A stretch of DNA of 56,657 nucleotides from a virus (Duplodnaviria; Caudoviricetes). Positions within the stretch are counted from its first letter, which is position 1. Each line of letters begins with the position of its first letter. Both the position numbers and the translations under genes were made by a program. Location: positions 1-56,657 of IMG/VR virus record IMGVR_UViG_3300006115_000011, one strand, 5' to 3'. The notes beneath the pieces are model-generated. The model was given only the letters and a program-made list of their open reading frames with translations. It did no database searches and was not told where the DNA came from. Shown in pieces: positions 6,031 through 47,115 of the stretch.

Positions 6031-6213
6031 TTGTCAAGAGTGGCAAATATAAAGTCACCGTGCAAGAGCGTATGCCAACTTATACCTGGCACAGAAACAT
6101 GTAAGGCATGTAAGCGAACAGTAGAAGAGATAACAAACTGGTATGACTACACACCAGCACAACGCAAAGCTGTAGTAAAACGCATCAAGGATCTAAATGG
6201 GCGTAACAAATAA
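6031..6213 (+). CDS. DUF1289-like Cys4 protein
   Basis: SPCxxVC...CxACxRTxEEIxxW pattern. Confidence 0.8.
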   Translation: MSRVANIKSPCKSVCQLIPGTETCKACKRTVEEITNWYDYTPAQRKAVVKRIKDLNGRNK

Positions 6214-9200
6214 ACTATTGCAAGAGATTACAGAAGCAGCAGCTAAAGGGCTTGAGCGTAAAGCAGTTGAAGTTGCAGCGCGTGATCCTGTATTACCTCC
6301 TCCATTACCGCGTGCCAAACCATACACAGACGAACAGTTACGCTCGTTTGCTGAACGCATGGCACCACAAGTCAATGGTGAATTCGTGCGTCTTGATCCT
6401 ACTACATCAAAAAACCCTGCTGACTTATCTTACAAAGTGTGGAAGAGACAACAAGAATTGCAACACACTATCGTGCCAACACGCGAAGTACAATCTACCG
6501 TACCATACGATCCAGCTAAGTGGGAAGGCCACGTGCTTTCTTCTATCGTAGGCGATCCTACCATCGGCGATAAAGAGATCATCGACATTAATGGCAAGAA
6601 GCTTGTTGTTCCATCTAAACAAGAAGCAGGATCACTATACGGATTAGGCGAGCCAAAAGATGCTTGGGCATCAACAAAGAACGCCGCTAAAACTATCCAG
6701 GGCAGGATTATAGATACGAGCAACATATATAACGCTCCAGTGTTAGGCGTATACACTAAAGGCGGATCAGGATCTTATTCGTATGCGCATCACATTAACG
6801 ATGCATTGCTTAAAAACATATACAGCAACCTTGATCAGATGACGCCTAAACAAATTCAAGCATTCAATACACTCATACGTAATCACACACCAGAGTTTGC
6901 TGGCATTGAAAATCTTGAAGCATCGCTTAATCAATTCAAAACAAATCCTGAGTTGCGCAAAAAGTTTTACGCGGAAGCTATCAAGCCAACTAACTCAGCA
7001 ACAATGAACATACCTAACGGATCAGATGTAGTACACGCCGCACTTGAACCTGATTTACGTTACTTAGAGTCAGGCGCTACAGGCCACTCCATTATGCAGC
7101 TAGATCCAAGTCAAACTACATTGCAGCCAGCAACGCATACAACTTACACAAATAGAATACCAAGACTTGAAAATACGCCAGTGATGCAATCAAGCACACC
7201 AATACCATATCAACTTCAATATCCTGATCAAATGCAAGCGATCATGAATAACCCAAGACAAGCACCGCAACCATTCGGCACAATTTCAATGGGCGGCGCA
7301 TCACAAATCAATGACGCTCAACACGTAGATCAAATAAGCAAGTACTTGCAATTCATGAAAGAACTTACTGGACGCGCTAAGGGCGGATCAATACACATGG
7401 GTGCAGGCGGTTCATTAGCTGAAGCTATTGTTAAAGGCGTAGAAGAATCAGCAGGTAAAGCAGTTGCACCAAAAGTTAATCGTATAGACATGCACTTTAA
7501 AGATGTAACTAAACGCGTGCCTGAATTATCAAAAGGATTCCAGCAATTAACTACTGGAGAAATAACACCAGCAGGTTATGAAGCTCTTGTGAATCAATAC
7601 AAGCCAGTAACACCATTTAGCTTTGTACCAAAACCAGCAACACCAGAAGAAGCTATTGGTGCGCTAAAAGAAAATCAAAAAGGTTTATACGGCGTTCCTT
7701 CACAAATACTACAAGAAGGCCATCCAGTAGGATTACGTTTAGACATTCCTGCATACACTAACAAAGGCGTATGGGTTCCAACTATACACGAACAAATATC
7801 TGGTCACGGCGCTGGCCCACTCATCGGACATGAAAGCGTAGCTCACGTTACTGATCCAACATTCGGCATGTCACAAAAGGCAGCCGCATCAATCGCTGGT
7901 GGCAATCCTAAAGGCACGATAGCAACTATCAAAGGCAACTGGAAGCCAACCACGCCAGATGAAACTGTAGCAAAAGCCACAGAGATTATGAATGATCCTG
8001 AGTGGATACAAGTTGGTATGGATCCAGAGCGTCACTCTCATTTTTATGATAGAGCAACAATGGAACCAGTAGTCGCTGGCAAAGAAGCAATACAAGTTGG
8101 CCCAGCAGTATTCGTAAAGAATCCAACATACGGAAAAAAAGAAGACTTCTTATACAAAGATGGTGGCCGCGCTTATGCACAAGGCGGTGGCGTACATATG
8201 GCTGATGGCGGATCTAACATGCAACAAAATGCTGTTGATCCTATTACTGCTTACTTTATGCAAAACATTAATCCAACTAATTTGGATATGATGCCATCAC
8301 CTAGCTCATCATACATTCCACAAAAAATTACACCAAGCCCAAGCCAAGCAACGTTTAACAAAGTATCAGGCATTAGTCCAGTTACAAACATTATTAAAGA
8401 AGTTACAGGCGGTATACAAAATGGCGTGCAAAATCAGTTGCCAACAGATATACAGAATGCTTATAAAAACGGACCACAATCAATTAGTGACATAGGCATA
8501 CGTGCAGCTAATTCACTTGCTGGATTCCCAATGGATATTGCTAATAGCTTAGGTTATGGCAATCCATCATCACCATACAACAACAATGTAGTTCCAAGTC
8601 AATCACAACTTAACTACAATATGCCTGCAAAAAAACCAGCTCCATTAACTACAGAAGCGTTTAATGAAGCAACCATGCCGTTACAGTCAGGCAATAGCTA
8701 TCCTGCATTAGAAACTGCCGCAGCATCTATTGGACCTGGCATAGCAGAAGATGTTGGATCTATTGGTAAGACAGCAGTAAAAAAAGGCGCTAACTTCCTT
8801 GGCCAAGAACTTGTAAACGCTAAAGGCGCTAACCGTAACCTTATCGGTAAATACTTAAACGCTATCGATCCTGAGTTAAACATTATCAAGCCACAAGGCG
8901 GCATGTTAGTTAGCGGAGAGACAGAATTAGAAAGAGAACTTCGTCATATAAAGAAAGATGAAGGTGTGGTTGGAAGATATGTAGAGCCAGAAAATATGAT
9001 TAATGTTAATGACAGTTTAAAAGATAAGCGTGCAGTTGCATTAAACAATTGGATTGATACCAAAGTTAAAAAATATATTCGCAATCAAGCTGGCACAGAA
9101 AACGATCCAATATTTAAAGCTATTGAATCAGGCGTTCAATATAACTTTGATCCTGCTATGGGTGATACTAAGTACATGACACAAGTTAAAAGAGCTAAAG

Positions 9201-10543
9201 CTGGATTTCCTGAAGAAGGTTCAGCTACTACAGACTTAGGTAAAGAGTGGCAATACAAAGTTGATTCAATATTTAAACCACATACCGCTGAAGATATTAA
9301 AGAAATATACAGAAATCCAAATATTAATGAAAAACAAAAACAATCAAGACTTCGTATAGAGCATGACCTTCCAATATATGACGAAAAAGATTATGACGCT
9401 CTTAAACTTATTAATGAAATACCTGATAAAAATGTATACACAATTGGTGGAACTAATATTGCAAGAAAGCTAGGGCTTGATCATGTAGCCGATGTATTAC
9501 ATGAAGACTTAACTTCAGGAAGATTGCAACCTGAACAGCTAAATCAAATGTCTATCGAGAAAGCTGTACGCCGTGCTGCAGATTATGACGCACAAAAAGC
9601 TCGCGAGATGACTAAGGCTCACGCTACGTCAGTTGAAGGCATGCCAATACCTAAACAATACGATGATGGTTTCAAATGGGTAGAGCTTAAACATCCTACT
9701 GAATCAGAGAAAACAAAAGGCGCACTTAAATCAGAAGGGGAAATGATGGGACATTGCGTTGGCAGCTATTGTCCTCAAGTTGAAAGTGGCCACACAAAAA
9801 TATATTCATTGCGCGGCCCTGATAACAAATCACATGTAACTATTGAAGCAACTAAAAAGAATCATCTTAATGATTGGTTAGACGCAAATAAAGAAGAGAT
9901 TGAAAAAGATCCTTTATTAAAACAAATGTCTTACTACGATGCTGATGAAAAATATCCTGGTATGTATTCAGAGGAAGAAGTACAACAAGCATACATTGCA
10001 GAAATAACAAAAATGTTAAAAAGAAAAGGTGCTCCAGTACATGAAGCTCCAAACTCATGGATAGATATTGAGCAAGTTAAGGGTAAACAAAACAAACGCC
10101 CTGATGACAAATACCAAAAGTATGTAACTGACTTCATAAAAAATAATCCAACTGGACATGAGATTGCTGACATACATGAATTAAATAATACAAACCTTCA
10201 TGATGTTCAATCTATGATAGCTGAAGGCGTGATGCCTAAAAAACTTCATATGCATCCTATTGTAGATAAAGCAGTTGGTATAGATCAACCTCATCTTGCA
10301 GCAAGAATGAATGATCCTAGATTTAGTAATGAAATTACAGATGAAAAATTTAACCTATTTAAAAACATTGGCAGAGACTTGGCAAACAAAGGCCAATACT
10401 ATGTTGATGATGAAGACATATTAAATGCAATCAAAACAAAATATTTGCCAATTAAAAAAGCCAAAGGTGGGCCAATAGATTTAGAAAAAGAATACAGATT
10501 AGCAAATGTAATAGATTTTAACTCAAGGAGACGTTATGGCTGA
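6197..10543 (+). CDS. Large multi-module (polyvalent-like) protein with a C-terminal PcfJ-like domain
   Basis: 1448 aa. EGEMMGHCVGSY...IYSLR...VTIE...QVKGKQN is PcfJ-like. Modules are separated by AKGG/AGG and KDGG/AQGG/ADGG linkers. Confidence 0.75.
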   Translation: MGVTNKLLQEITEAAAKGLERKAVEVAARDPVLPPPLPRAKPYTDEQLRSFAERMAPQVNGEFVRLDPTTSKNPADLSYKVWKRQQELQHTIVPTREVQSTVPYDPAKWEGHVLSSIVGDPTIGDKEIIDINGKKLVVPSKQEAGSLYGLGEPKDAWASTKNAAKTIQGRIIDTSNIYNAPVLGVYTKGGSGSYSYAHHINDALLKNIYSNLDQMTPKQIQAFNTLIRNHTPEFAGIENLEASLNQFKTNPELRKKFYAEAIKPTNSATMNIPNGSDVVHAALEPDLRYLESGATGHSIMQLDPSQTTLQPATHTTYTNRIPRLENTPVMQSSTPIPYQLQYPDQMQAIMNNPRQAPQPFGTISMGGASQINDAQHVDQISKYLQFMKELTGRAKGGSIHMGAGGSLAEAIVKGVEESAGKAVAPKVNRIDMHFKDVTKRVPELSKGFQQLTTGEITPAGYEALVNQYKPVTPFSFVPKPATPEEAIGALKENQKGLYGVPSQILQEGHPVGLRLDIPAYTNKGVWVPTIHEQISGHGAGPLIGHESVAHVTDPTFGMSQKAAASIAGGNPKGTIATIKGNWKPTTPDETVAKATEIMNDPEWIQVGMDPERHSHFYDRATMEPVVAGKEAIQVGPAVFVKNPTYGKKEDFLYKDGGRAYAQGGGVHMADGGSNMQQNAVDPITAYFMQNINPTNLDMMPSPSSSYIPQKITPSPSQATFNKVSGISPVTNIIKEVTGGIQNGVQNQLPTDIQNAYKNGPQSISDIGIRAANSLAGFPMDIANSLGYGNPSSPYNNNVVPSQSQLNYNMPAKKPAPLTTEAFNEATMPLQSGNSYPALETAAASIGPGIAEDVGSIGKTAVKKGANFLGQELVNAKGANRNLIGKYLNAIDPELNIIKPQGGMLVSGETELERELRHIKKDEGVVGRYVEPENMINVNDSLKDKRAVALNNWIDTKVKKYIRNQAGTENDPIFKAIESGVQYNFDPAMGDTKYMTQVKRAKAGFPEEGSATTDLGKEWQYKVDSIFKPHTAEDIKEIYRNPNINEKQKQSRLRIEHDLPIYDEKDYDALKLINEIPDKNVYTIGGTNIARKLGLDHVADVLHEDLTSGRLQPEQLNQMSIEKAVRRAADYDAQKAREMTKAHATSVEGMPIPKQYDDGFKWVELKHPTESEKTKGALKSEGEMMGHCVGSYCPQVESGHTKIYSLRGPDNKSHVTIEATKKNHLNDWLDANKEEIEKDPLLKQMSYYDADEKYPGMYSEEEVQQAYIAEITKMLKRKGAPVHEAPNSWIDIEQVKGKQNKRPDDKYQKYVTDFIKNNPTGHEIADIHELNNTNLHDVQSMIAEGVMPKKLHMHPIVDKAVGIDQPHLAARMNDPRFSNEITDEKFNLFKNIGRDLANKGQYYVDDEDILNAIKTKYLPIKKAKGGPIDLEKEYRLANVIDFNSRRRYG

Positions 10544-13148
10544 GATGCCCATTGAACAGGAATATGACAGACATATTGCTGGTATAAAAACACAAGAGAA
10601 TGCAGACGGAAGTGCCGAAGTTGAAATACCTGAACAAGAAGAAGGTATTGTAGAGAACGAAGACGGCTCAGCTACTGTACACCTTGAAGAATTTAAAGGT
10701 CCAGCTGAAGATGAAGATTTCTATTCTAACTTAGCTGAATCAGTCAACTTATACGACTTAGATAAGATTGGTAACCGTTATTTAGATTTAATTAAGAAGG
10801 ATAAAGAAGCACGTGAAAAACGCGATAAACAATACGAAGAAGGTATTAGGCGAACTGGTTTGGGTGATGACGCTCCTGGTGGCGCGAATTTTATGGGAGC
10901 TTCTCGCGTGGTACACCCAGTTATGGCAGAAGCCTGCGTCGACTTCGCATCAAGTGCGATCAAAGAACTCTTTCCGCCTGATGGCCCAACGCGAATCCAA
11001 ATCTTAGGTGACGCTGACGAGATCAAGACAGAAGTAGCAGAACGTAAACGTGATTACATGAACTGGCAATTAACGGAGCAGATTGAAGAGTTCCGTGACG
11101 AGCAAGAACAGTTACTCACACAGTTACCGTTAGGTGGCTCACAGTTTATGAAGTTATGGTATGACGAAAAGAAACGTCGTCCATGCGCAGAGTTCGTGCC
11201 TATTGATAACATTCTTTTACCATTCGCATCAGTTAACTTCTACACATCACAACGTGTAACTGAAGTACAACAAATTACTGAGTGGGAATTTAATCAACGT
11301 GTTGATCGTGGTTTATATCGCGATGTTAATCTTATTCGTGCTACATCAGAACCTGAAGAAACTAAATCAGAACAAGCTTCTAATAAAGTTGAAGGTCGTC
11401 AATGGCAAGATAATGAAGATGGTTTACGCACTGTATATCACATCTATACATACCTTGAACTTGATGATGACAAACGTACTAAAGGCGAATCAGCACCATA
11501 CATTATGATGATTGATAGTCTTGAACACAAAATACTAGGTCTATATAGAAACTGGGAGGAAGGCGATGAAACGTTTAACAAGTTGGATTGGCTCATTGAA
11601 TTCAAGTTTATTCCTTGGAGGGGTGCTTACGCAATTGGTCTCCCTCATCTTATTGGCGGCCTTAGTGCTGCTCTTACTGGCGCTCTCCGCGCTCTATTGG
11701 ATACCGCTCATATTAATAACAGCGCTACTATGCTTAAACTCAAAGGCGCGAAGATTAGTGGTTCGTCACAACAGATCGAAGTAACACAAGTATCAGAAAT
11801 TGAAGGCGCACCAGGTGTAGATGATGTACGTAAGATTGCTATGCCTATGCCATTTAATCCACCATCACAAGTATTGTTTGAATTACTTGGTTGGTTAGAT
11901 ACTGCTGCTAAAGGTGTGGTATCAACATCTGAAGAGAAGATTGCAGACATTAATGCAAACTCCCCAGTAGGTACAGCACAAGCTTTAATTGAGCAAGGCG
12001 CAAAAGTATTCTCAGCTATTCACGCACGATTACATGATTCACAAAGACGTGTATTGCAAGTGCTTGGCCGTATCAATCGTTGGTATCTAGATGACATGAA
12101 GAAAGGCGACGTTGTTGCTGACCTTCCTGTTTCACGTGATGACTTCAAACGTAACTCAGACATCGTTCCTGTTTCTGATCCGCACATATTTTCAGAAACA
12201 CAACGTATGGCACAGAATCAAGCCGTATTGCAATTAATGACACAGTTCCCACAAGCGTTTGATCAAAATGCTGTGATTACACGTGTATTAAAACAAATGA
12301 AGGTGCCAGGTGTTAATGAGTTAATGCCAGCTAATGCACAACCAGCAGAGATGGATGCATCTAACGAAAATGCTGCAATGGCTTTAGGTAAATCAGCTTT
12401 TGCTTACCCTGATCAAGATCAACTATCGCATATTCAAGCTCACCTTGATTTTGCATTAGATCCTAATTTAGGTAGCAACAACTTGATTGCACCACAATTC
12501 ATACCACAAGTATTAGAGCATGTAAAACAACATATGGTTCTTTGGTATACACAACAAATGCAAACATATGCTGGTGGCCATCAAAAAGTTAACTTGCAAA
12601 AATATGAAGATAGCAAGCTTAAAACACAAATTGATAAAGTGGTGGCGATTGCTGGTCAACATGTTAAGTTGGATTCACAACAAACATTTTCTGGCGTAGC
12701 ACAAGCATTACAACAACTTGGTCAACTCATGCAGAAATTTGCTCCACAACCGCAAATGGATCCATCAGATCAAGCTGTATTACAAGCTTCTATGGCAGAA
12801 ACAAATCGTCGCGCACAACGCGATCAAGCCGATGTTCAATTGGCTCAACAAAAACTTCAAGCTGATACTCAGTTAAATAGCAACAAGGTTCAAACGGATC
12901 AAGCAATTAAGAACCAAGCTTTACAAACTGATATTCAATTGAAGCAACAAGAGTTAGCACAAGCAAGTGACGCAGATGCAGCTCGCCTTAAAACGGATAT
13001 TGCAATGAATTCACAAAACAATGCTACTGCTGAAAAGATCAAGGCTGCGCAATTAGCCCACGATCAACAGAAGATGCATACAGATTTGGCAACTCATATG
13101 CATGATTCTTTACATAAACACTTAGGAGATAGTAATGGCAATTATTAA
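10536..13148 (+). CDS. Portal protein
   Basis: 870 aa; between terL and the head genes; podovirus-type portal features with a C-terminal Gln-rich coiled barrel. Confidence 0.9.
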   Translation: MAEMPIEQEYDRHIAGIKTQENADGSAEVEIPEQEEGIVENEDGSATVHLEEFKGPAEDEDFYSNLAESVNLYDLDKIGNRYLDLIKKDKEAREKRDKQYEEGIRRTGLGDDAPGGANFMGASRVVHPVMAEACVDFASSAIKELFPPDGPTRIQILGDADEIKTEVAERKRDYMNWQLTEQIEEFRDEQEQLLTQLPLGGSQFMKLWYDEKKRRPCAEFVPIDNILLPFASVNFYTSQRVTEVQQITEWEFNQRVDRGLYRDVNLIRATSEPEETKSEQASNKVEGRQWQDNEDGLRTVYHIYTYLELDDDKRTKGESAPYIMMIDSLEHKILGLYRNWEEGDETFNKLDWLIEFKFIPWRGAYAIGLPHLIGGLSAALTGALRALLDTAHINNSATMLKLKGAKISGSSQQIEVTQVSEIEGAPGVDDVRKIAMPMPFNPPSQVLFELLGWLDTAAKGVVSTSEEKIADINANSPVGTAQALIEQGAKVFSAIHARLHDSQRRVLQVLGRINRWYLDDMKKGDVVADLPVSRDDFKRNSDIVPVSDPHIFSETQRMAQNQAVLQLMTQFPQAFDQNAVITRVLKQMKVPGVNELMPANAQPAEMDASNENAAMALGKSAFAYPDQDQLSHIQAHLDFALDPNLGSNNLIAPQFIPQVLEHVKQHMVLWYTQQMQTYAGGHQKVNLQKYEDSKLKTQIDKVVAIAGQHVKLDSQQTFSGVAQALQQLGQLMQKFAPQPQMDPSDQAVLQASMAETNRRAQRDQADVQLAQQKLQADTQLNSNKVQTDQAIKNQALQTDIQLKQQELAQASDADAARLKTDIAMNSQNNATAEKIKAAQLAHDQQKMHTDLATHMHDSLHKHLGDSNGNY
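11566..11784 (+). CDS. Putative nested membrane protein in the +1 frame of the portal
   Basis: GGAGG SD just upstream of ATG; ~40 aa hydrophobic core with a basic tail; local portal Leu codons avoid TTA. Confidence 0.4.
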   Translation: MKRLTSWIGSLNSSLFLGGVLTQLVSLILLAALVLLLLALSALYWIPLILITALLCLNSKARRLVVRHNRSK

Positions 13149-13591: not shown

Positions 13592-13776
13592 GGTACTCAT
13601 CCGACTATATTGGCGCTGTAAAAGCGCGTCAAGCCGAGATTGCTTACGCATTAGCTAGTGGCAACGCTACTAATTTTGAAAGCTATCAACGTTTGGTCGG
13701 AGAGTATGCAGGCTTATCTGCTGCATTAGATATTTTTAATAACTTACTCAAAGAAGAGGAAACAAAAGAACTATGA
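13588..13776 (+). CDS. Conserved small protein upstream of GroES
   Basis: LASG...FESYQRLVGEYAGL pattern; gene order portal - small ORF - GroES. Confidence 0.75.
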   Translation: MRYSSDYIGAVKARQAEIAYALASGNATNFESYQRLVGEYAGLSAALDIFNNLLKEEETKEL

Positions 13777-14195
13777 GTGAAACATCAGTAGCTGTTGATT
13801 CAGCTGATTTACTGGAAGCTTTTCCAGTTGTAGATCCTGGTGCTATACCATTAGGCGCAAGAATATTAGTACAAATGCGTTTACCAAAGAAAAAGATGAC
13901 GGCTTCAGGAATCATCTTAGCTGAGGAAACTAGGGATACAGAAAAAGCACAGAATCCAATTGGCAAAGTAATAGCGATTGGACCATTAGCGTTTAAAAAG
14001 CGCGACACAATGGAATCATGGCCAGAAGGTTCATGGTGTTCTGTAGGGGACTTTGTTCGCGTACCACGCTGGACAGGTGATCGTTGGGAAATAAAAATTG
14101 ACGCAGATACAACTGTTGAATTTATGCTCATGAACGACCACGAAGTCATTGCTAAATTAACCAGTAGTCCATTAGAAATGAAGGCATTTGTATGA
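13773..14195 (+). CDS. groES: GroES/Cpn10-like co-chaperonin
   Basis: PLGARILV...TASGIIL...GKVIAIGP...VGDFV...LMNDHEVIA. Confidence 0.88.
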   Translation: MSETSVAVDSADLLEAFPVVDPGAIPLGARILVQMRLPKKKMTASGIILAEETRDTEKAQNPIGKVIAIGPLAFKKRDTMESWPEGSWCSVGDFVRVPRWTGDRWEIKIDADTTVEFMLMNDHEVIAKLTSSPLEMKAFV

Positions 14196-15178
14196 TAGAC
14201 GACAATAAAGAAAATGAAGAATTAGATATTAAGGAAGATGCAGATGGCAGCGCTATTGTTGCAGTTCCTAAGGATCTAGAAACAGAAACTACAGAGGTTC
14301 AAGCATCACCAGAAGACTCAGATGAAGCCGATGAAGCAGCAAGACAGGCCGAATTAGCTGACGGTGGTTCTATTGATCCTGACGCAGAAGCAATTCGTGA
14401 AGCAAAAAGAGCTAAAAGACGTGCTAGAAAAGAGTATCACAAGCAAGTTTCAGCTGAAAAAGATCACAAATTGTCATATTTAGAGCGTCAAAATCAAGAA
14501 TTGCTAGAAAGATTAGCTGTTGTTGAGAGAAAAGCGCAAGGATCGGAGATAGCTACTTTAAATAAACAAAAAGAAGAGCTAGAAACTAAGATTTTGTTCG
14601 CAAAACAAAAGATTGAAGAAGCTACAGCTGCTGGCGATGGCAGAATGCTCACTTCAGCCCAAGAAATGTGGTTTGATGCTCGTAAAAATCACGAAGCATT
14701 AGAGAATTTGATCAAACAATCTGTTCAACCTCAACCACAACGAACAATTCAAGCTCCTGATCCAGCAGTACAAAGACATGCATCAGAATTTATGATGGAT
14801 AATCCTTGGTACGATCCTCAAGGTAGGGATACAGACTCTAGAATCACGTTACAGATTGATAGAGACCTATCCGCAGAGGGCTGGAACCCAAAAACACAAG
14901 AATATTGGGAAGAACTCGATAATCGCTTGCAAAAATACTTACCTCACCGTTATAATGAGGGAGAAAGAAATGACGTGGCACCATCTAGAAAACCTAGAAA
15001 CGTTGTTACTAGCTCAGGTAGAGAAAGTTTGGCAAGTAGTGGCGGTGGCAAAAACACCTTCACACTTTCCCCAGATCAAGTCAAGGCAATGAAAGACGCT
15101 GGTATGTGGGATGATCCAGACAAAAAAGCGAAGATGATTCGTCGTTATATAACCGAAGCTAATAACAAAAGAATATAG
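14192..15178 (+). CDS. Putative capsid scaffolding protein
   Basis: Acidic N-terminus, coiled coil, NPWY motif; upstream of the capsid genes. Confidence 0.7.
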   Translation: MIDDNKENEELDIKEDADGSAIVAVPKDLETETTEVQASPEDSDEADEAARQAELADGGSIDPDAEAIREAKRAKRRARKEYHKQVSAEKDHKLSYLERQNQELLERLAVVERKAQGSEIATLNKQKEELETKILFAKQKIEEATAAGDGRMLTSAQEMWFDARKNHEALENLIKQSVQPQPQRTIQAPDPAVQRHASEFMMDNPWYDPQGRDTDSRITLQIDRDLSAEGWNPKTQEYWEELDNRLQKYLPHRYNEGERNDVAPSRKPRNVVTSSGRESLASSGGGKNTFTLSPDQVKAMKDAGMWDDPDKKAKMIRRYITEANNKRI

Positions 15179-18345: not shown

Positions 18346-19482
18346 ATGGCTCAATTTAAACCAATGATTAAAATGGAAACTACTGAACCTTCAGTAGAAC
18401 TCAAGCTTAAAAAAGGTGGTCATGCTAAACATCACATGAAAAAAGGTGGTAAAGCTGAACACGGTCACAAACATATGAAACACATGATGGACGGTGGCGT
18501 TCTTGGCGCTTTAGCTGGACAACCAGCTTTAGTTAAAGCACGCAGACCTGCACTTGCAGCTATTGCTAGACCAGCTGCTCCTTCAATGGCTGCTCGTCGC
18601 GCTGCGATGATGGCTAAAAAAGGTGGCGCTGCTAAGCATAAAGCTAAAGGCGGTAAAATCGAGCATCTAGAAGAAGAACTTAAACACCATGAACACATGA
18701 AAGCTGGTAAAGCTCATCATGGCCTTAAAAAAGGTGGTAAGGCTTGCTACGCAGTTGGTGGCACAGTATCTGATTCAGTAGCTAGAAAATATGCAGAAAC
18801 ATTAATGCATACAGATGAGCATATGGATACAGTTAAAGGCCCTACTGGCGGTGTTAAAGAAGGTAATGGTGGTGGCTACAAAAAAGGCGGCAAAGTACAT
18901 CATAAGGCAACTGGTGGTGTTATGGAGTCTAATGCTGGTGGCTACAAAAAAGGCGGTAAGGTAAAACATCACGCTAAAGGTGGTTCTGCTTCAGGCGAAG
19001 AGATTGATCGTTTTGAAGCAAGAAGTGCTATTGAGCATGATGAAGGTCCGTATGAAGAAACTGAAATGCATACTGCCAAAAAAGATAAAGCTCATGGAAC
19101 TGGCGATGTAAAAGAAGGTAACGCTGGTGGTTACAAACATGGCGGTAAGGCTCACCACATGAAAAAAGGTGGTGCATCAAAAAAAGCCTACGCCACGGGG
19201 GGAAGTGTTAATAACGCTGGTCGCGCCGTGGCATTAGTACCAAGAGGTGTTGGAGCTAAAAAAGCACCTCCTGTTGCAATAACAGCGCTATCTGGAACCT
19301 ATAAAAAAGGTGGCAAGGTAGCTTCTGGTAACCGTAAGTTAGAATCAGTTTATGATAGCGAAAATGCTCCAGATGTTCGTGAATCTAAAGCTGATACGCG
19401 TTTGAAATATGACCAAGATACATATCAAGGTCAAAACATTCCAAAGGCACCAACTTACAAAAAACGTGGCGGTAAATGCTAA
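18346..19482 (+). CDS. Lys/His/Gly-rich protein with ~16 [K/A]xGG repeats, ending in GGKC
   Basis: SD TAAGGAG; repeats KKGG, AKGG, AVGG, ATGG, KHGG. Confidence 0.8.
   Translation: MAQFKPMIKMETTEPSVELKLKKGGHAKHHMKKGGKAEHGHKHMKHMMDGGVLGALAGQPALVKARRPALAAIARPAAPSMAARRAAMMAKKGGAAKHKAKGGKIEHLEEELKHHEHMKAGKAHHGLKKGGKACYAVGGTVSDSVARKYAETLMHTDEHMDTVKGPTGGVKEGNGGGYKKGGKVHHKATGGVMESNAGGYKKGGKVKHHAKGGSASGEEIDRFEARSAIEHDEGPYEETEMHTAKKDKAHGTGDVKEGNAGGYKHGGKAHHMKKGGASKKAYATGGSVNNAGRAVALVPRGVGAKKAPPVAITALSGTYKKGGKVASGNRKLESVYDSENAPDVRESKADTRLKYDQDTYQGQNIPKAPTYKKRGGKC
19179..19232 (+). promoter_or_regulatory. Putative programmed -1 ribosomal frameshift signal
   Basis: In-frame A AAA AAA heptamer, 6-nt spacer, GCCACGG/CCGTGGC stem enclosing AGTGTT/AACGCT. 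The -1 frame ends SLRHGGKC-stop at 19209-19211. Confidence 0.7.
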
Positions 19483-20316: not shown

Positions 20317-20844
20317 ATGCCAAGCGTAAGCAAAAAACAACATAACTTAATGGAAGCTGTGGCTCATAGTTCTTCTTTTGCTAAAAAAGTAGGTATACCA
20401 CAACATGTTGGAAAAGATTTTGCTGAAGCAGACAAAGGTAAAAAGTTTGCTAAAGGTGGTTTATATGCAAATATTCATGCTAAACAAGAGCGTATAGCTC
20501 ATGGTAGTCACGAACATATGCGTAAGCCTGGATCAAAAGGCGCACCAACTGCTGAAGCATTTAAAAAGTCAGCATTAACTGCAAAACCAATGAAAGAAGG
20601 TGGCCCATCTCTAGCGGTAGGACGCGGTGAGAAGTTACCTACAAAACAAGGCGCAGGGCTAACAGCAAAAGGCCGTGCTAAATATAATCGAGAAACAGGT
20701 AGTCACTTAAAGGCACCACAACCTCAAGGAGGTTCACGTAAGAATAGCTTTTGTGCGCGTATGTCAGGTGTTGTAAAACACTCATCAGGCGACGCTCCTA
20801 GAGCAAAAGCTTCCTTAAGACGTTGGAAATGCCCAGGGTGGTAA
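20317..20844 (+). CDS. Basic three-module protein; C-terminal module DUF6321-like
   Basis: Modules MPSVSKKQHN..., GLYANIHAKQERI... and GAGLTAKGRAKYN...SFCARM...SLRRWKC, joined by FAKGG and MKEGG. Confidence 0.7.
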   Translation: MPSVSKKQHNLMEAVAHSSSFAKKVGIPQHVGKDFAEADKGKKFAKGGLYANIHAKQERIAHGSHEHMRKPGSKGAPTAEAFKKSALTAKPMKEGGPSLAVGRGEKLPTKQGAGLTAKGRAKYNRETGSHLKAPQPQGGSRKNSFCARMSGVVKHSSGDAPRAKASLRRWKCPGW

Positions 20845-25700: not shown

Positions 25701-25701
25701 C

Positions 25702-27117: not shown

Positions 27118-27125
27118 GATAAAAC

Positions 27126-27755: not shown

Positions 27756-27760
27756 ACATC

Positions 27761-28402: not shown

Positions 28403-28411
28403 GGAAAAAAT

Positions 28412-30792: not shown

Positions 30793-30802
30793 AGGAATTA
30801 TT

Positions 30803-39521: not shown

Positions 39522-39954
39522 AAAACATAAACTTAATCCATTGCAAATTATCATTGCAGCTCATCATCAAAATCCACGTAGAACTTTAAAACAGTTTGTT
39601 GGCATGGTTGAGATTGAAATGAAAATGCCACAAGTATTTAAATGCCAAGAAGGCAATACTATTTTCTTAATTCACAGAACTGCTGTACCTGGCGTTGGTT
39701 ACTTAAAAACAGTTAATGCAGATACGCCTAGAAATTTTATAAAGAGTTGTCAAAAAATCGCAGAACTTGTTTACCATGCTGGTTTTGACAAACTCATTGC
39801 TCAAACAGATCAAAAGTCAATTGTAAATATATTTAAAAGAATTGTAGATCATCCAGTTAGACCTCACATGAAACTTATTTTACAAAAAACAAATATTGGA
39901 AGCCATCAATGCGTATTGCAACTAGGTCATTCTAGAACGAAAGGAAAGCAATAA
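39505..39954 (+). CDS. Hypothetical protein preceding the ejection proteins
   Basis: Positionally equivalent to T7 gp13-like genes; function inferred from position only. Confidence 0.55.
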   Translation: MLVDSKKHKLNPLQIIIAAHHQNPRRTLKQFVGMVEIEMKMPQVFKCQEGNTIFLIHRTAVPGVGYLKTVNADTPRNFIKSCQKIAELVYHAGFDKLIAQTDQKSIVNIFKRIVDHPVRPHMKLILQKTNIGSHQCVLQLGHSRTKGKQ

Positions 39955-41369: not shown

Positions 41370-41372
41370 ATC

Positions 41373-43319
41373 ATGGCATGTAACTCATCACCACTTTTTT
41401 GCTTAAACGCTATATTAAGTAATAGCGGCGTTCAAGGATCACTCGTTGGAGGATTGCTTGGCAGCTTATTAAGCGGAACAAATAAAAGCCCTATAAATCA
41501 AGGCGTTAATATGAATGAGTCTGGATGGATTAATCCAGAAACAACTAACTTTGGTATTGGATCACCAAGAGTAGTTAGTTATAGCTGCTATGGAACATCA
41601 CCTAATCAAACAAACGCATACACTGAAGTAAATAAAGGTTTAGGTGTAATGCCTGGAACTTATCCTAACTTAGCATCATTAAACACAAGTGCATTGCCTA
41701 ATATTGCAAACACACCATGCAAGCCACAATATAACCTAACAAATGTTGGTTCTATGAATACAATGGCTAACCCTACCTTTGGAACTCAATGTTCGTCTAT
41801 AGGACCTGGAACAGGTGCTTTATTAGGTGGTTTAGCTGGTGCGCTTTATGGTAAATCAACTGGCAATAGTTTATTTAATACTGGTAGTTTATTCGGTAGT
41901 GGAACGCCAGTTATTAATCCTAATAATAATCCTCAACAAAATAGTGCTCCAGATTATGGCAATACTCCTATTTGCCAACCAGCTGAATATAAAGTTAATG
42001 AATCATTAGGTAGAAATGTAGGTGGCATGAATGGACAAAATACTGTTATTCAAACAAACGCAGCTGGCCAATATGTAGATACTCAAACTGGAGAACAAGT
42101 AACACCAATCGGTAACAATGAATACGTAACATCTAACGGCAATATTGTTAATGATAGTGGCGTGCAACAAATGCCTAACTACGGTTCTTATATTGCAGGT
42201 AACAATTCAGGTTGTGGCTGTGGTTGCGGAGGTTATTGCGGTGGATATAAACGTGGTGGATTGATATACGCAAAAAATGGAGGACATATGGGTTCAGCAC
42301 TCATGGCAAGAAAAGGTGGCTTAGCTCATTTAGCTATAGGAGGTCAGCCTGATAACGATGGTGATGAAGCAAATGAAACTAATGAATCATGGCAAAACAA
42401 TAATTCATCAGCACAATTTCCATGGCAACATCAAAACGCAAATGTGCCTAATCCATCTAATAACTTTACTTATGGCCAACCAGTAAATCCTATGCATATA
42501 TTACATGGCCATGGAAATCAATTTCATAACAATGGTGTATGGACAGCCCCCACACAAAGTGCAAATCCTAATTTAAATCAAACAAACAACATGGCCGAAT
42601 CAGTTCAAAATAGAATGGGATTAAATCATTTAGCTGTTGGTGGACAACCAACTGCATGGCTACATCAGAATCAAGGTAACGGTGTAAATGCAAGTTCAGG
42701 TGCAATGGGCTTGAGCGGACTACCATATCAAAATAACTTTGGTGGATTGCAAGGTGAACCAGCAGGACCAGCAGGTGGCCCAAATATCTATCATCCTTTA
42801 CAAGGACGTTTTGAAGGCTTTGGACATCATATGCCATCCGATAATACAGGCATGATGAATAACCAAACAGAAGGTATGTCTGCAACATGTCACGCACCAA
42901 TTCCATATACAGGATCATTTACACCAGCTGTAAATTCTTCTTTTGAACCTCAAGCAGCATACGCTGATGGTGGTCATACACATCATACACACGGATTACA
43001 TCCAGAAAATATAGTCGATCACGTTCCTATTATGAATGGTCGACATGATTATCGTGGTGGTGCCGAAGTAAGAGGTGCAGGCACAGGCCAATCAGATGAC
43101 ATTCCTGCAATGCTTGCAGATGGTGAATATGTTATTGACGCAGAAACAGTTTCACACTTAGGTGACGGCTCAAATAAAGCTGGCGCTAAAGTATTAGATG
43201 GTATGAGAAAAGCTATTCGTGAACACAAACGTTCAGCTCCATTAAACTCAATACCTCCAAAAGCAAAAACACCTATAGCTTATATTAAGCAAGGTGAAAA
43301 AATGAAAGGTAAAAAATAA
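41373..43319 (+). CDS. Putative internal virion protein with xAxGG motifs and a C-terminal GxGxGxSDxIPAxLxDGEYV domain
   Basis: RGAGTGQSDDIPAMLADGEYVIDA; multiple xxGG motifs; Asn/Gly-rich. Confidence 0.7.
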   Translation: MACNSSPLFCLNAILSNSGVQGSLVGGLLGSLLSGTNKSPINQGVNMNESGWINPETTNFGIGSPRVVSYSCYGTSPNQTNAYTEVNKGLGVMPGTYPNLASLNTSALPNIANTPCKPQYNLTNVGSMNTMANPTFGTQCSSIGPGTGALLGGLAGALYGKSTGNSLFNTGSLFGSGTPVINPNNNPQQNSAPDYGNTPICQPAEYKVNESLGRNVGGMNGQNTVIQTNAAGQYVDTQTGEQVTPIGNNEYVTSNGNIVNDSGVQQMPNYGSYIAGNNSGCGCGCGGYCGGYKRGGLIYAKNGGHMGSALMARKGGLAHLAIGGQPDNDGDEANETNESWQNNNSSAQFPWQHQNANVPNPSNNFTYGQPVNPMHILHGHGNQFHNNGVWTAPTQSANPNLNQTNNMAESVQNRMGLNHLAVGGQPTAWLHQNQGNGVNASSGAMGLSGLPYQNNFGGLQGEPAGPAGGPNIYHPLQGRFEGFGHHMPSDNTGMMNNQTEGMSATCHAPIPYTGSFTPAVNSSFEPQAAYADGGHTHHTHGLHPENIVDHVPIMNGRHDYRGGAEVRGAGTGQSDDIPAMLADGEYVIDAETVSHLGDGSNKAGAKVLDGMRKAIREHKRSAPLNSIPPKAKTPIAYIKQGEKMKGKK

Positions 43320-44257
43320 TGGCCGCTACCCAAACAACTGGTAATCAAACATCTACCAATCCTAATACAAACAATGCTAATAACTATACTACAGCATCTG
43401 AAGGAAATTTATTTCAGGGATCAGCGTTACCAGCAACCGTAACGACAACTGAACAGCAACAAACTGCGCCTGATTTTTATACCAACTATTTACAAGACAT
43501 TGCTAATTTAGGTCAGAACGCTGTAACACAAGGTGGAGTTGCTGGCTTTAGTCCATTGCAACAACAAGCATTTCAAATGGCACCACAAGCTGCTTTTGCA
43601 GGCGCTAATAGTTTGAATGCAGCACAAAATGCATTAGGAACTATTGATGCAAATACGGCTGCTAACCTTGTTGGCAATTACATGAATCCATTTACTAAAG
43701 ATGTATTAAATGCTAATGAGTTACAATCTCAACAAAACATTCAACGTAATATTTTACCTGCGCTTGCATCAGCTGGAGTTGGCACTGGATCATTCGGATC
43801 ATCACGTATGGCCAATGCAACTGGACAATCTTTAGCAGATATACAATCACAACTTGGCGCACAAAATGCTAACCTATTAAATACTGGTTATAACCAATCT
43901 ATGCAAAATGCACAAACAGGTATTGGTGAACAACTTACAGCTGGACAACAACTTAATGCATTAGGCACAGAACAAAATGCTTTAGCACAAGCTGGCCTTA
44001 ATCAACTAAGTAACTTAGGCGGCCAACAACAAGCTTTCGGTCAAAAAGTATTATGTAACCCAATGGCTATGGCACAAAACTTTAGTAAGCTTATGGGCGG
44101 TTACAACATTCCAATGGGACAAGTTAATCAAGTTACTGCACCAGGTCAACAAGGTAACTTCTCTAATAGTCCGTTATCACAAATTGCAGGTCTTGGCACT
44201 CTGATTGCTGCTCTTTATGGTCAGCCTACAAGTCCAACAACTACAGCAGGTAAATAA
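43319..44257 (+). CDS. Putative DNA ejection protein
   Basis: Gln/Ala/Gly-rich; YMNPF and GSFGSSR motifs typical of podovirus ejection proteins. Confidence 0.7.
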   Translation: MAATQTTGNQTSTNPNTNNANNYTTASEGNLFQGSALPATVTTTEQQQTAPDFYTNYLQDIANLGQNAVTQGGVAGFSPLQQQAFQMAPQAAFAGANSLNAAQNALGTIDANTAANLVGNYMNPFTKDVLNANELQSQQNIQRNILPALASAGVGTGSFGSSRMANATGQSLADIQSQLGAQNANLLNTGYNQSMQNAQTGIGEQLTAGQQLNALGTEQNALAQAGLNQLSNLGGQQQAFGQKVLCNPMAMAQNFSKLMGGYNIPMGQVNQVTAPGQQGNFSNSPLSQIAGLGTLIAALYGQPTSPTTTAGK

Positions 44258-44266
44258 GGAAAAATT

Positions 44267-45898
44267 ATGGGAGCATTAAGTATGTTAGCTGGCTTATTGC
44301 CAGATGCTATTACTGGAGGTAATCAAACACCACCACCACCTCCACAAGATCAAACAACTCCACAAGTAGCAAGCCCAACTCCGCCTGTTGCTAAAGAAAA
44401 TGCAGAGCCTGCTGATTCATATAATACTGCGCTAGAAAATGTTAGAACGCAAAGCTTAAATCTGAACAAACAATTTCAAGACTTACAATCTTCATTAGAT
44501 AAAAGAGTTCAGCCGCCATTTAATCCAATGCTTATGCGTTTGGCTGCTGGTCTTTTAAAGCCAACAAAAACTGGTGCTTTTGGTGAGTCTATAGGCAATG
44601 CCGCAGATGAAGCTGCTAACGAAGCAGAAAGACAACGCCAACAAACTTTAGATACATCTAAACTTAAATTAGAATTAGGTCAAAAAGGTTTAGAGATGGC
44701 ACAAAGCCAAGCTGAACTTGAAAGACAATTAAAACTTCGTGACTTCCAAAAAACATTATTAGTTCCAGTAAAAGTTGCTGGAGCCGATGGTAAAGAAGTT
44801 ACTAAATATCAACTCAATTCTGATGCGTTACAAGGTGCTTTAAATTACAGTAACGATCCTAAGTTTATGTCTGATGTTGCAGACACCGTACAAAAATTAC
44901 GTAAGTCTGGCATGATCTATCAAGGCCAAGCTGAAGGTGCCACGCCATTCGATGCTTACTTGGCTGTTTTACCTAAAGACAATCCTTTGTATATAACAGC
45001 AGAAAATTTACAAAAGAGCTATCGAGACGGCACAATGGATCCAGAAAAAGCAGATCAACATGCACAATCATTTGGTATCGCAGTTAATTCATTCCTAGAT
45101 AAACGCAAAGAAGAAGATAACAGAGACTCACAAGATGCTAACGGTATTTGGAACTCTATGTCTGAAGATCAAAAACGTCTTGATTCAGAGCAATATTTAT
45201 TAACTGGTAAGATTAATGACTATGGCATGAAAACAGGTTTAGTTACTTCTAAACTTAAAAATTATGCACTTCAAGTTTTTGCTAGACAAAATGGATGGAC
45301 ACCTGAAGAAGTTGCTCAGAAGGTTGCAGAAAACAAAGGCAATCAACTTGCATTACAAAAACTTCTTACAAACATGGATCAAGTATCTTCATTTGAAAAA
45401 ACAGCTAACCTTAATGCTGATCAAGCTTTACAACAATCAGATAAGATTACACGTGGTAGCGTTAAAATGTTTAACAGATGGAAACTTGCTGGTCAAAATG
45501 AATTGGCTTCTGATCCAGACTTAGCAGCATTTAATGTGGCTAATGAAACGTTTGTTAATGAATACGCTAAAGTTATGTCAGGCGGCATTGGCAATACTCC
45601 AACAAGTGATGCTAAAGTTGCTGCTGCATTAAAAATGCTTCATACATCTATGAATGAAGATGAATATAAATCAGCTATCATGCAGATGAAAAAAGATATG
45701 GCTAATCGTATGCAAGGTTATCATGATCAAATTGGTGAAAATAGAGCAAGAACAACTGGATCAACTAGCACTACACAACAAACAAGCAATGAAACTTCTA
45801 TAGCAGCTCGTCCAGCTGGAGTTCCTGCGAATGCGCAATATAGCCCAAGCCAAAAATCTTGGTGGTGGCAAGAAAATGGCGCTTGGAAACATAGTTAA
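44267..45898 (+). CDS. Putative DNA ejection protein (543 aa)
   Basis: Helical; LAAGLLKPTKTGAFGESIG; at the end of the late operon. Confidence 0.65.
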   Translation: MGALSMLAGLLPDAITGGNQTPPPPPQDQTTPQVASPTPPVAKENAEPADSYNTALENVRTQSLNLNKQFQDLQSSLDKRVQPPFNPMLMRLAAGLLKPTKTGAFGESIGNAADEAANEAERQRQQTLDTSKLKLELGQKGLEMAQSQAELERQLKLRDFQKTLLVPVKVAGADGKEVTKYQLNSDALQGALNYSNDPKFMSDVADTVQKLRKSGMIYQGQAEGATPFDAYLAVLPKDNPLYITAENLQKSYRDGTMDPEKADQHAQSFGIAVNSFLDKRKEEDNRDSQDANGIWNSMSEDQKRLDSEQYLLTGKINDYGMKTGLVTSKLKNYALQVFARQNGWTPEEVAQKVAENKGNQLALQKLLTNMDQVSSFEKTANLNADQALQQSDKITRGSVKMFNRWKLAGQNELASDPDLAAFNVANETFVNEYAKVMSGGIGNTPTSDAKVAAALKMLHTSMNEDEYKSAIMQMKKDMANRMQGYHDQIGENRARTTGSTSTTQQTSNETSIAARPAGVPANAQYSPSQKSWWWQENGAWKHS

Positions 45899-47115
45899 TG
45901 GCTTCAGCACCTACAGATTTAATGACACCTCCGTCTGATTTAGTTTCAGCTAATCAGCCGCCTGCTGACTTATTATCACCTTCAAGTGATTTAATATCTC
46001 ATCCAGAAGCTAATCATAATCCTTTATCAGATATTCCAACGCCTGCAACGCCTGAAAGTTTATCTGCTTCAAAAGCTTATTACAATTCTACAGGTCGCAA
46101 AGCAAAAGAATTTGGAGAAGAAGCTTTGCATATGTTAGAAGGTGTTCCTATTATGGGCGCTGAAGCTCAGGTAGGCGAAGCTGCACTTCCTTATTTAATG
46201 AGTAAAGCACCAGCAATTGAAAAGGGTTTAAATGCAACTGGCAACGCTATTGCATCTGGCGCATCTAAAGTAGGTAGCGCTATAAAAGGTTTGCCGCTAA
46301 CAACTCAAGCTTTTCTTTCTAGATTTCCAAAAGAAGAACTTGCTAAGATGTATGAATATGCAAAGAGTGAAGCTAATCCGCTTGAGCAAGAATTTAAAAA
46401 TTGGTATGAACAAAAATTTACACCAGTTAATAGAGGTGATTATAACAACGCTATTGCTGAAGGTTTACCTCATGAATTAGCTGTGCAAGCTACACACCGA
46501 AGATCAGATTTGCCACAAGGTGTTTGGTACATGAAAAACTTATTTAATAATAATTACGTGCCAAGCAAAATGGGAGGATTAACTCTTGATGAATTTAATA
46601 AAGCACGTGAAACATTATTGGGTGACATATTGCCTAAAGAATTAAGCGAAGCTCAACGACTAGGCACAAAATATGCAAGCTATTTTCCGCACACAAGAGA
46701 AGCTTGGGAAAAACTTGCAGCTCATGGTTTAGGTTGGGAAGGTGCTACAAATTGGTTACTACATACTGGACTTGGTTTAAAAAGCGCTGGGATACCAGTT
46801 GCTTTGCAATCGCCGAGAGTTAATGCTGAGATATTAAGAACAGCTGGTAAGGCTTCTAAGTATGCCAATAAAGCTATTAATACATTAGGCAATTATGGAA
46901 GTAAAGTTGAAAATGCACTTGAACCAGTTACTAAACCTATAAATAGCGCTTTAGATGCATTATTAAATGCGACTCCAGTATCGGTGGCTGCACAACAAGC
47001 TGATCCTAACAATCCATACAATGTAGCTAATCATGCTAAAGGTGGCCCTATTACACCAGCGATACCTTTAACGCTTAGTCATCCTTACTACAGAAAACTA
47101 AACAGATCTAATTGA
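45898..47115 (+). CDS. Putative internal virion protein (405 aa), last late gene
   Basis: N-terminal PxDL repeats; HAKGG near the C-terminus. Confidence 0.6.
   Translation: MASAPTDLMTPPSDLVSANQPPADLLSPSSDLISHPEANHNPLSDIPTPATPESLSASKAYYNSTGRKAKEFGEEALHMLEGVPIMGAEAQVGEAALPYLMSKAPAIEKGLNATGNAIASGASKVGSAIKGLPLTTQAFLSRFPKEELAKMYEYAKSEANPLEQEFKNWYEQKFTPVNRGDYNNAIAEGLPHELAVQATHRRSDLPQGVWYMKNLFNNNYVPSKMGGLTLDEFNKARETLLGDILPKELSEAQRLGTKYASYFPHTREAWEKLAAHGLGWEGATNWLLHTGLGLKSAGIPVALQSPRVNAEILRTAGKASKYANKAINTLGNYGSKVENALEPVTKPINSALDALLNATPVSVAAQQADPNNPYNVANHAKGGPITPAIPLTLSHPYYRKLNRSN

Follow-up and report, generated by a model that had tools for sequence, protein, structure and literature searches.

A short double-glycine motif recurs in the lysine-rich late proteins encoded by IMGVR_UViG_3300006115_000011, an IMG/VR virus record (Duplodnaviria; Caudoviricetes) that was analyzed here in its entirety (56,657 bases; hereafter, the window) and that carries a long plus-strand block of late genes. 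Our results show that this is a real short linear motif of 7–8 residues, [K/G]-Φ-[A/K]-x-G-G-x-[V/I], that is conserved at the protein level, with position Φ usually taken by K, Y, M, F, or L and only occasionally by R or H. Comparisons with homologous sequences indicate that it forms the joint between independently shuffled modules of the Lys-rich late proteins of this lineage. We tentatively read the motif as a processing signal that may be cut between Φ and the following A or K (Φ|A/K) by a host or other protease, a reading to which we give a real chance that falls short of even.

An earlier note on this DNA, made from the letters alone, had drawn attention to [YFMHLK][AK]xGG in five late proteins of 1448, 378, 175, 648, and 405 amino acids (aa). 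All instances that it quoted from the 1448-, 175-, 648-, and 405-aa proteins are present where it placed them, and the 378-aa protein is indeed motif-rich, with a copy number of 14 strict copies (among 21 GG dipeptides) rather than about 16. The five carriers are otherwise unrelated, as that note had also stated, with no significant pairwise similarity (best BLASTP E = 0.11). Two carrier open reading frames (ORFs) come in addition to these, each with a single copy: LADGG lies in the 328-aa scaffold-like protein, and YKVGG, which falls outside the extended form of the motif, lies in an early DUF3310 protein of 248 aa encoded on the minus strand.

The motif is far more abundant than amino acid composition would predict. 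Based on 5,000 composition-preserving shuffles of each of 49 window ORFs, 4.42 copies of [YFMHLK][AK]xGG were expected and 27 were observed; when the 378-aa protein was removed, 13 were observed versus 3.53 expected. Shuffle P values for the individual proteins were 0.0004 (1448 aa), <0.0002 (378 aa), 0.016 (175 aa), 0.0002 (648 aa), and 0.10 (405 aa). The 7-residue form, [KYMFLRH][AK]xGGx[VIA], was detected 18 times versus 1.06 expected among 58 ORFs, and all 18 copies were in late ORFs.

Since the pattern was defined post hoc, constraint was also examined at positions outside the selected pattern. Among 358 unique contexts from 120 homologs of the 1448-aa protein, V (45%), I (23%), or A (15%) occupied the second position past GG in 83% of cases. 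Likewise, when unique contexts were chosen solely as A-x-G-G-x-[VI], 159 of the 169 had K, Y, M, or F at Φ; M was present there in 13–26% of sites. Codons were checked since A-K-G-G and K-E-G-G could encode the Shine-Dalgarno-like sequence AAGGAGG. The Gly codons of the motif were GGT or GGC in 45 of 52 cases, and GGAGG was identified at 1 of 26 sites. Given this avoidance of GGAGG, the signal acts at the protein level rather than at the nucleotide level, and a Shine-Dalgarno or gene-start relic was rejected on codon usage together with the residue spectrum at Φ.

The association of the motif with module boundaries is evident among homologs of the 1448-aa protein, 211 of which were found and the best 120 of which were analyzed. 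These 120 homologs are mosaics of PcfJ, ART-PolyVal (PF18760), ParB (PF02195), or SLT (PF01464) domains and contain 435 motifs versus 55 expected, with at least one motif in 118 and at least three in 93. Internal motif sites coincided with homology breakpoints, defined as three or more BLAST segment ends no farther than 10 aa from the site, in 266 of 333 cases (80%), compared to 20% of random positions. Conversely, 199 of 1,049 breakpoint clusters were located within 15 residues of a motif, versus 7% at random, and most breakpoints therefore lie away from motifs. In the window protein, breakpoints pile up at aa 390–420 and 650–680, which correspond to its two motif clusters, and further peaks at aa 810–840 and ~1330 carry no motif. 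The earlier suggestion that the motif sits between apparent modules is thus borne out by breakpoints in this family and by a structural model of the 175-aa protein.

In 91 of the 120 homologs a motif is found within the last 40 residues and is followed by a conserved tail. Two such short tails follow the final motif, ...EYKLENMRRRYG or ...GDDLILEERPL; these conserved C-terminal tails may themselves be a terminal tag. The PcfJ domain of the window protein and the ART-PolyVal, ParB, and SLT domains of its homologs make them large multidomain effector mosaics within a phage late region, which is the description of polyvalent proteins; they also have homology breakpoints in common. A search of the PcfJ domain against plasmids returned only two matches.

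The 175-aa protein comprises three modules (A, B, and C), with PHROG and Pfam matches spanning aa 1–43, 45–90, and 110–172 (the last being DUF6321). An AlphaFold2 model (45 sequences; mean predicted local distance difference test [pLDDT] 76.5) predicts three small helical modules, with both motif sites in low-confidence coil between them. A fold search with this model returned nothing at E ≤ 0.001; helix-turn-helix DNA-binding entries were listed at E > 1 and are not evidence. The family is very large, with 7,936 of 8,000 scored candidates matching at E ≤ 0.001 (the best 120 being 78–96% identical) and 3,019 matches when cluster representatives were searched.

Five or six module types (A, A', B, C, D, and E) were identified in many orders across 80 IMG/VR loci and representatives. 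Architectures included A-B-C, A-C, B-C, A-D-B-C, A'-D-B-C, A-B with a separate C, A-D-B with a separate C, B alone, and C alone. Modules flanked by the motif therefore do occur as separate genes elsewhere, a check that the earlier note had proposed, and both fused and separate adjacent forms are present. Every fused joint in the window lineage is Φ-[A/K]-x-G-G, with x being variable. Modules B and C are present in 595 phage records, mainly from cyanophages and pelagiphages. The anchor of module C is positioned 6 (159 cases) or 7 (27 cases) residues after Φ in fusions; in stand-alone C it is positioned 6 residues after Met1 in 13 of 26 cases and 5–8 residues after it in 23 of 26. The anchor of module B is positioned 5 (147) or 6 (28) residues after Φ in fusions and 4–7 residues after Met1 in 11 of 12 stand-alone versions. 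By these spacings, Met1 of the stand-alone modules aligns with position Φ of the fusions.

The 378-aa polycation holds the most copies. It is predicted to be disordered, because the mean pLDDT of its ESM Atlas model is 0.37. Homologs were identified in 53 of 82 loci, are 28–51% identical, and encode 4–16 motif copies each. In an alignment of 34 family members with a mean column identity of 28%, GG pairs are invariant and the invariant columns are chiefly motif glycines; the N-terminus and the C-terminal KKRGGxxxC are also conserved. The protein matched no Pfam family at E ≤ 0.01, so the KGG stress-protein repeat (PF10685) was unmatched, and tblastn against cultured phages returned no match with the low-complexity filter on. 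Strong polycations among the late proteins are the 378-aa protein (net +34), the 175-aa protein (+24), and the product of ORF 39505–39954 (+14). A C-terminal Cys signature following GG was also observed repeatedly: the 378-aa family ends in KKRGGxxxC (19459–19482 in the window), split A-B genes end in GGKxSKSCW or GGQSCPCW, and DUF6321 ends in RWKCPGW.

In the window, motif carriers are Lys-rich proteins (6–15% K), and the fibre-like and tail proteins (0.5–2% Lys) carry none. The enrichment in structural genes that the earlier note had proposed to test across related phages was recovered among five related complete genomes, in which the motif is ~5-fold denser in the structural arc (94 copies in 65,867 aa) than elsewhere (7 in 24,993 aa; Fisher p = 2.8e-7), with the qualification that the arcs are roughly drawn and that the genomes are related, such that counts are not independent. 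The 7-residue form was detected 45 times in the structural arc of these genomes versus twice elsewhere. We infer that the five carrier proteins are packaged in the head and ejected.

The uncultured relative MW202545.1 carries the motif in syntenic genes: 4 copies are in a pre-portal protein of 890 aa, 10 in a polycation of 449 aa, 2 in a 171-aa protein, and 4 in an ejection-type protein of 639 aa. Several of these carriers are not alignable with their window counterparts, and the 171-aa protein has another N-terminal module. Among 40 IMG/VR loci spanning the capsid to adaptor genes, the order was capsid protein, variable charge-poor protein, 378-aa-like polycation (which 3 of these loci lack), a further variable charge-poor protein, 175-aa family, and adaptor. 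Almost every motif copy in these loci was in a Lys-rich ORF, and six charge-poor ORFs had one copy each. The cultured relatives lack the system: Caulobacter phage RW has one copy and lacks the syntenic carrier genes, Roseobacter phage CRP-901 has none in 11,993 aa, an Alcaligenes phage has one, and Pelagibacter phage HTVC023P has 10 copies in 11,628 aa.

The motif also occurs in tape-measure proteins. The C-terminus of the 648-aa protein matched PHROG tape-measure families, annotated tape-measure proteins (tblastn), and the tape-measure chains 8zdo and 8rk3 in the PDB. The shared C-terminal element was defined as Φ-A-x-G-G-x-[VI] and, after it, either GxGxGxSDxIPAxLSxGE[FYH]V or a GExGxE variant, and the 648-aa protein has both parts, YADGG and GTGQSDDIPAMLADGEYV, with an insert between them. 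Motif and element are contiguous in ReqiPine5, Nitrincola 1M3-16, Henu15, and JBD30 and in chains 8zdo and 8rk3; examples of tape-measure proteins with the motif directly before the conserved element are EYATGGAIRGPGSGTSDD..., TFATGGYVSGAGTGTSDSIPAWLSNGEFV, and GFADGGLVRGPGTGRSDSIPAVLSDGEYV. The form Φ-A-x-G-G-x-[VI/T] is located close to the C-terminal end in the tape-measure proteins of ReqiPine5, Nitrincola 1M3-16, Morganella Henu15, JBD30 (copies FASGGHI and HATGGQI), and lambda. The cut at residue 1066 of the JBD30 protein is a prediction by its authors, and that residue is not at the motif.

Among phage tape-measure proteins, a mapped cut is available only for T5 pb2, in which Linares et al. 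(2023; PMC10038345) place it after R1127. In the T5 record this bond reads ...NSFVPR|AEGGMMYPGV and is thus the bond between Φ and A; only three [AK]xGG sites are present in the 1,219-residue protein, and this is one of them. The T5 C-terminal piece is 92 residues, a length also given in the corresponding part of the Ur-lambda paper (2025; PMC12617516). With this cut, the scissile bond precedes A/K rather than follows GG. The same part of the Ur-lambda paper describes cleavage among tape-measure proteins as known for T5 and lambda only, and states that the cleavage site of lambda gpH and the manner of its catalysis are unknown (PMC12617516). Two motif copies, FATGG at aa 733 and YATGG at aa 778, fall in the part of lambda gpH where its unmapped cleavage takes place. 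A hypothetical cut at F733|A734 would yield products with computed masses of 79.8 and 12.5 kDa, versus a lambda fragment reported as ~14 kDa where that paper treats it (PMC12617516).

Taken together, the junction position of the motif, the correspondence of Φ to the residue with which separately encoded modules begin, and the cut in T5 suggest a processing signal at Φ|A/K. An exposed motif would be cut between Φ and the following A or K, and the cut would set free modules that match the products of separate genes in related phages, such that the fused genes would be polyproteins. The proposal in the earlier note that the motif is a cleavage site is plausible by way of T5 R1127|AEGG, with the position of the cut being before A/K and not after GG; cleavage in the window phage is inferred by that comparison. 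The window has no recognizable protease, and the enzyme would therefore be a host protease or an unrecognized virion activity. By its title, a 1973 paper reports a role of the host in cleaving a tail protein of T5.

Several observations weigh against processing at this site. The earlier note had recognized no canonical prohead protease, and PHROGs, Pfam, and NCBIfam searches of the window proteins agree, with no member of the S78, U35, S77, S49, or S80 protease families near the portal, scaffold, and capsid genes. Sequence searches of the PDB with the 1448-, 259-, and 181-aa proteins likewise returned no protease. The conserved 181-aa protein was rejected as a hidden protease, as its AlphaFold2 model (mean pLDDT 67) had a best Foldseek E of 0.23; in the ESM Atlas this protein matched unnamed viral clusters only. 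A SprT-like HExxH metalloprotease (114 aa; 31900–32244, inside the late region) was rejected as the processing enzyme, with a homolog in 1 of 5 related genomes and none in the examined part of MW202545.1. Φ covers both basic and aromatic residues, which is an unusual P1 range for a single protease. If every one of the 14 sites in the 378-aa protein were cut, pieces of 6–68 residues would result, and the protein thereby resembles a multivalent binding repeat more than a precursor. In other lineages, modules B and C are linked by acidic linkers without the motif, and in tape-measure proteins the motif runs straight into GxGxGxSDxIPAxLSxGE[FY]V, which suggests that it is part of a structural unit. 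T5 pb2 also has RALGG (aa 138–142), which is not reported as cut, and the motif alone therefore seems insufficient. Finally, T5 is a single mapped case that was noticed post hoc, and its cut could reflect an exposed Arg in a flexible glycine linker. Separately, the 259-aa gene between two Lys-rich genes was considered as a partner or protease and was rejected: in relatives its slot is filled by unrelated charge-poor proteins, and its product had no PDB sequence match.

It is quite conceivable, if somewhat doubtful, that the motif is not cut but acts as a hinge or docking site, with the GG pair as a flexible joint and the hydrophobic Φ and V/I anchors on either side docking reversibly on a repeated partner. 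Candidate partners would be DNA, the inner wall of the capsid, and the portal or tail channel; cargo arranged as beads on a string would be stowed and threaded out module by module, and the 378-aa protein would be a multivalent polycationic glue. The 4–16 positionally conserved copies in the predicted-disordered 378-aa family are consistent with this, as are the coil between modules in the 175-aa model, the continuity of the motif with a conserved downstream element in tape-measure proteins, the lack of a protease in Pfam, PHROGs, NCBIfam, and fold searches, and the retention of the motif at the C-terminus of some split genes (e.g., ...MKSGGKMSKSCW). However, a pure linker would not require Φ to be limited to K, Y, M, and F, and a hinge leaves unexplained both the T5 cut exactly at Φ|A and the start of stand-alone genes at Φ. 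A broader version of the processing signal, in which Φ-A/K-x-G-G-x-V/I is a pan-Caudoviricetes cut signal for proteins that exit through the tail (tape-measure, podovirus ejection, and polyvalent cargo proteins) and is read by a conserved host or virion activity, is unlikely in our estimation. If true, it would account for the T5 pb2 cut and for the 50-year-old unmapped cleavage of lambda gpH to gpH*, with the latter predicted at F733|A734. It would also make the fused genes described here true polyproteins, and would convert the 378-aa polycation into small basic His-rich peptides packed with DNA, a functional parallel to adenovirus pVII/pX processing.

The remaining alternatives fare less well. 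An address label that would recruit cargo to the procapsid, as the T4 capsid-targeting sequence or encapsulin peptides do, was the other function proposed in the earlier note; we regard it as improbable. The motif is confined to probable internal proteins and is near the C-terminus in 91 of 120 polyvalent homologs and in the 405-aa protein, as a label might be, yet it is internal and repeated between every module pair rather than being one tag at a terminus. Better tag candidates are the conserved tails beyond the final motif (...EYKLENMRRRYG and ...DDLILEERPL), and tape-measure proteins carry the motif but are tail rather than head proteins. Cleavage after GG by a double-glycine, ubiquitin-like, or adenain-type protease, the analogy drawn in the earlier note, is more improbable still. 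The resemblance of a GG pair with an upstream hydrophobic residue to LxGG and (M/L/I)xGG viral cysteine protease sites is superficial, with the hydrophobic residue here being one position farther from GG than in LxGG-type consensus sites. Neither half of the analogy held: motifs are internal or C-terminal, between modules, rather than in an N-terminal leader of 15–30 aa ending in GG, and in place of a beta-grasp fold ahead of GG the 175-aa model has helices and coil only, with no strands before either GG, and the 378-aa protein is predicted to be disordered. Moreover, Pfam scans of 49 ORFs identified no C39 peptidase, ABC transporter family, E1, JAB/DUB, or clan CE peptidase, the T5 cut precedes A, and stand-alone genes start at Φ rather than after GG. 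Least tenable, and largely refuted, is the absence of any function, with the motif being a by-product of Lys/Gly composition, internal repeats, or relics of fused gene starts (Shine-Dalgarno/ATG). Although most copies are in one repetitive protein and Φ is M at a minority of sites that align with split-gene start codons, the enrichment survives composition-preserving shuffles and the dropping of the 378-aa protein, codons avoid GGAGG, Φ is mostly K, Y, or F rather than M, and the motif is kept in the non-homologous contexts of MW202545.1 and in 118 of 120 polyvalent homologs.

Coordinates of the motif copies, their carriers, and neighboring late genes are compiled in Table 1. Besides these, the late block holds fibre-like proteins and an endolysin, and closes with a set of probable ejection proteins that ends at 47115. 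The scaffold role of the 328-aa protein is suggested by gene position and composition, hence "scaffold-like". The GroES slot is syntenic in MW202545.1, Caulobacter phage RW, HTVC023P, CRP-901, and an Alcaligenes phage, and an F5/8 type C domain is additionally present in the first SU10-adaptor paralog (20854–21936). An ORF for a C-5 cytosine DNA methylase (1–813) extends past the start of the record, which is probably circularly permuted.

Table 1. Positions of motif copies, carrier proteins, and neighboring late genes in the window.
Feature	Position	Strand	Remarks
Small and large terminase	3781-5952		Late block
1448-aa pre-portal "polyvalent" protein	6197..10543	+	PcfJ-like domain, aa 1142-1222 (Pfam PF14284)
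RAKGG-SIH-MGAGG, double motif of 1448-aa protein	7373..7411	+	Junction 1, aa 393-405; RAKGG 7373-7387, MGAGG 7397-7411
YKDGG-RA-YAQGG-GVH-MADGG, triple motif of 1448-aa protein	8153..8212	+	Junction 2, aa 653-672; YKDGG 8153-8167, YAQGG 8174-8188, MADGG 8198-8212
KAKGG of 1448-aa protein	10457..10471	+	aa 1421-1425, then conserved 23-aa C-terminal tail ending RRRYG
Portal	10536-13148		Next to the 1448-aa protein gene
GroES (Cpn10) homolog	13773-14195		Between portal and scaffold genes; Pfam
328-aa scaffold-like protein	14192..15178	+	Acidic N-terminal stretch, then Lys/Arg/Glu-rich; LADGGSI 14354-14374
Mu gpT-like major capsid protein	16359-17273		Late block
378-aa polycation	18346..19482	+	K 15%, G 16%, net +34, 14 strict motif copies
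LKKGG, MKKGG of 378-aa protein	18406..18450	+	Starts 18406, 18436
KAKGG, LKKGG, YAVGG of 378-aa protein	18640..18762	+	Starts 18640, 18724, 18748
YKKGG, KATGG, YKKGG, HAKGG of 378-aa protein	18877..18984	+	Starts 18877, 18904, 18943, 18970
YKHGG, MKKGG, YATGG of 378-aa protein	19132..19203	+	Starts 19132, 19159, 19189
YKKGG, C-terminal KKRGG-KC of 378-aa protein	19300..19473	+	Starts 19300, 19459
175-aa three-module protein	20317..20844	+	A aa 1-43 (PHROG 16759), B aa 49-87 (PHROG 16028), C = DUF6321 aa 100-172 (Pfam PF19846)
FAKGG, A|B junction of 175-aa protein	20446..20460	+	pLDDT dips to 60, aa 41-50
MKEGG, B|C junction of 175-aa protein	20590..20604	+	pLDDT <50, aa 87-95
Two SU10-adaptor paralogs	20854-21936 and 34833-35471		PF24175
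648-aa ejection-type protein	41373..43319	+	C-terminal tape-measure-like element GTGQSDDIPAMLADGEYV
YKRGG, YAKNGG, MARKGG, LAIGG cluster of 648-aa protein	42246..42344	+	YKRGG 42246, YAKNGG 42267-42284, MARKGG 42303-42320, LAIGG 42330
LAVGG of 648-aa protein	42630..42644	+	
YADGG of 648-aa protein	42960..42974	+	Upstream of tape-measure-like element
405-aa late protein	45898..47115	+	HAKGGPI 47032-47052 (HAKGG 47032-47046), then 22-aa tail

Judged by capsid protein, the nearest named relatives are MW202545.1 (88% identity) and Caulobacter phages RW, GB2A, RLK, and KcrB (78%), with Roseobacter phages CRP-901/902, Pelagibacter phages HTVC023P/027P, and an Alcaligenes phage being farther away. 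MW202545.1 is titled "Siphoviridae sp." even though it has adaptor and nozzle genes of the podovirus type and no gene for a tail tube was noticed; a number of the product names in it resemble spurious labels from automatic annotation. The fibre-like and tail late proteins of the window (22314–31893 and 35474–44257) are nearly devoid of charged residues: the product of 22314–25700 has 0.7% K, 0.7% R, and 2.0% D+E, that of 25702–27117 has 0.6% K, 0.6% R, and 1.5% D+E, and that of 35474–36706 has no Arg. This division of late proteins into Lys-poor and Lys-rich is repeated in relatives. A 213-aa protein (31252–31893) is 31% glycine with 26 GG dipeptides, lacks the junction motif, and had no family match.

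Consensus-site processing of virion proteins and polyvalent proteins are both already known. A literature search, whose coverage excluded most subscription journals and supplementary files, found no description of the motif and nothing on DUF6321 or DUF3008; motif strings returned only noise from polymerase chain reaction primers, queries on tape measure and Gly-Gly returned only papers on M23 peptidases, and queries on polyproteins and ejection proteins returned nothing relevant. What is new is that a shared junction motif would link polyvalent proteins to tape-measure cleavage, which is directly testable in lambda and T5; were the signal shared, it would provide a concrete and cheap prediction for both model phages. 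It would likewise provide a rule for module boundaries, and possibly for mature products, in a very large class of unannotated polyvalent and ejection proteins, with the 175-aa family alone comprising more than 7,900 close metagenome relatives. If the motif is cut, some phage structural genes are polyproteins; even an uncut motif is of practical use for flagging proteins of uncultured phages that are probably internal or ejected.

Among characterized systems, the prohead proteases of T4 (gp21) and of SPN3US/phiKZ-type phages carry out motif-directed maturation of head and ejection proteins. These resemble the window in that one short consensus is reused across many proteins, which in those systems are packaged; unlike in the window, where none is recognizable, a dedicated phage protease is encoded, and the consensus sites differ. 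The adenovirus protease cuts at (M/L/I)xGG|x, and African swine fever virus polyproteins are cut at GG|x sites, with a clan CE cysteine protease being encoded. There, the cuts in basic core proteins fall at glycine pairs that have a hydrophobic residue upstream and generate small DNA-associated peptides, which offers a functional analogy for the 378-aa polycation; however, spacing and scissile bond differ and there is no homology. In staphylococcal phage 80alpha, the host protease Prp cuts the capsid and scaffold proteins at F|A and thus sets a precedent for a site-specific host enzyme that acts on structural proteins of a phage, after a large hydrophobic residue and before Ala, although the motif is different and Prp belongs to Firmicutes.

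Like polyvalent proteins, the 1448-aa protein and its homologs are large mosaics of effector domains, encoded by a gene that adjoins the portal gene. Where Iyer et al. (2017; PMC5512222) discuss release, proteolytic liberation of domains is proposed for the polyvalent proteins of phages and conjugative elements and is ascribed to embedded zincin-like peptidase domains; no such domain was found in the window protein. The words "linker" and "glycine" have no occurrences in the main text of that paper (PMC5512222). With regard to the C-terminal processing of the siphophage tape-measure proteins T5 pb2 (to pb2* and pb2C) and lambda gpH (to gpH* and gpHC), the same Φ-A-x-G-G is found in the C-terminal region of those proteins. 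Unlike T5 and lambda, the window is a podovirus-type genome without a tape-measure protein, and five or six of its proteins carry the motif at numerous junctions, with up to 14 copies in a single protein.

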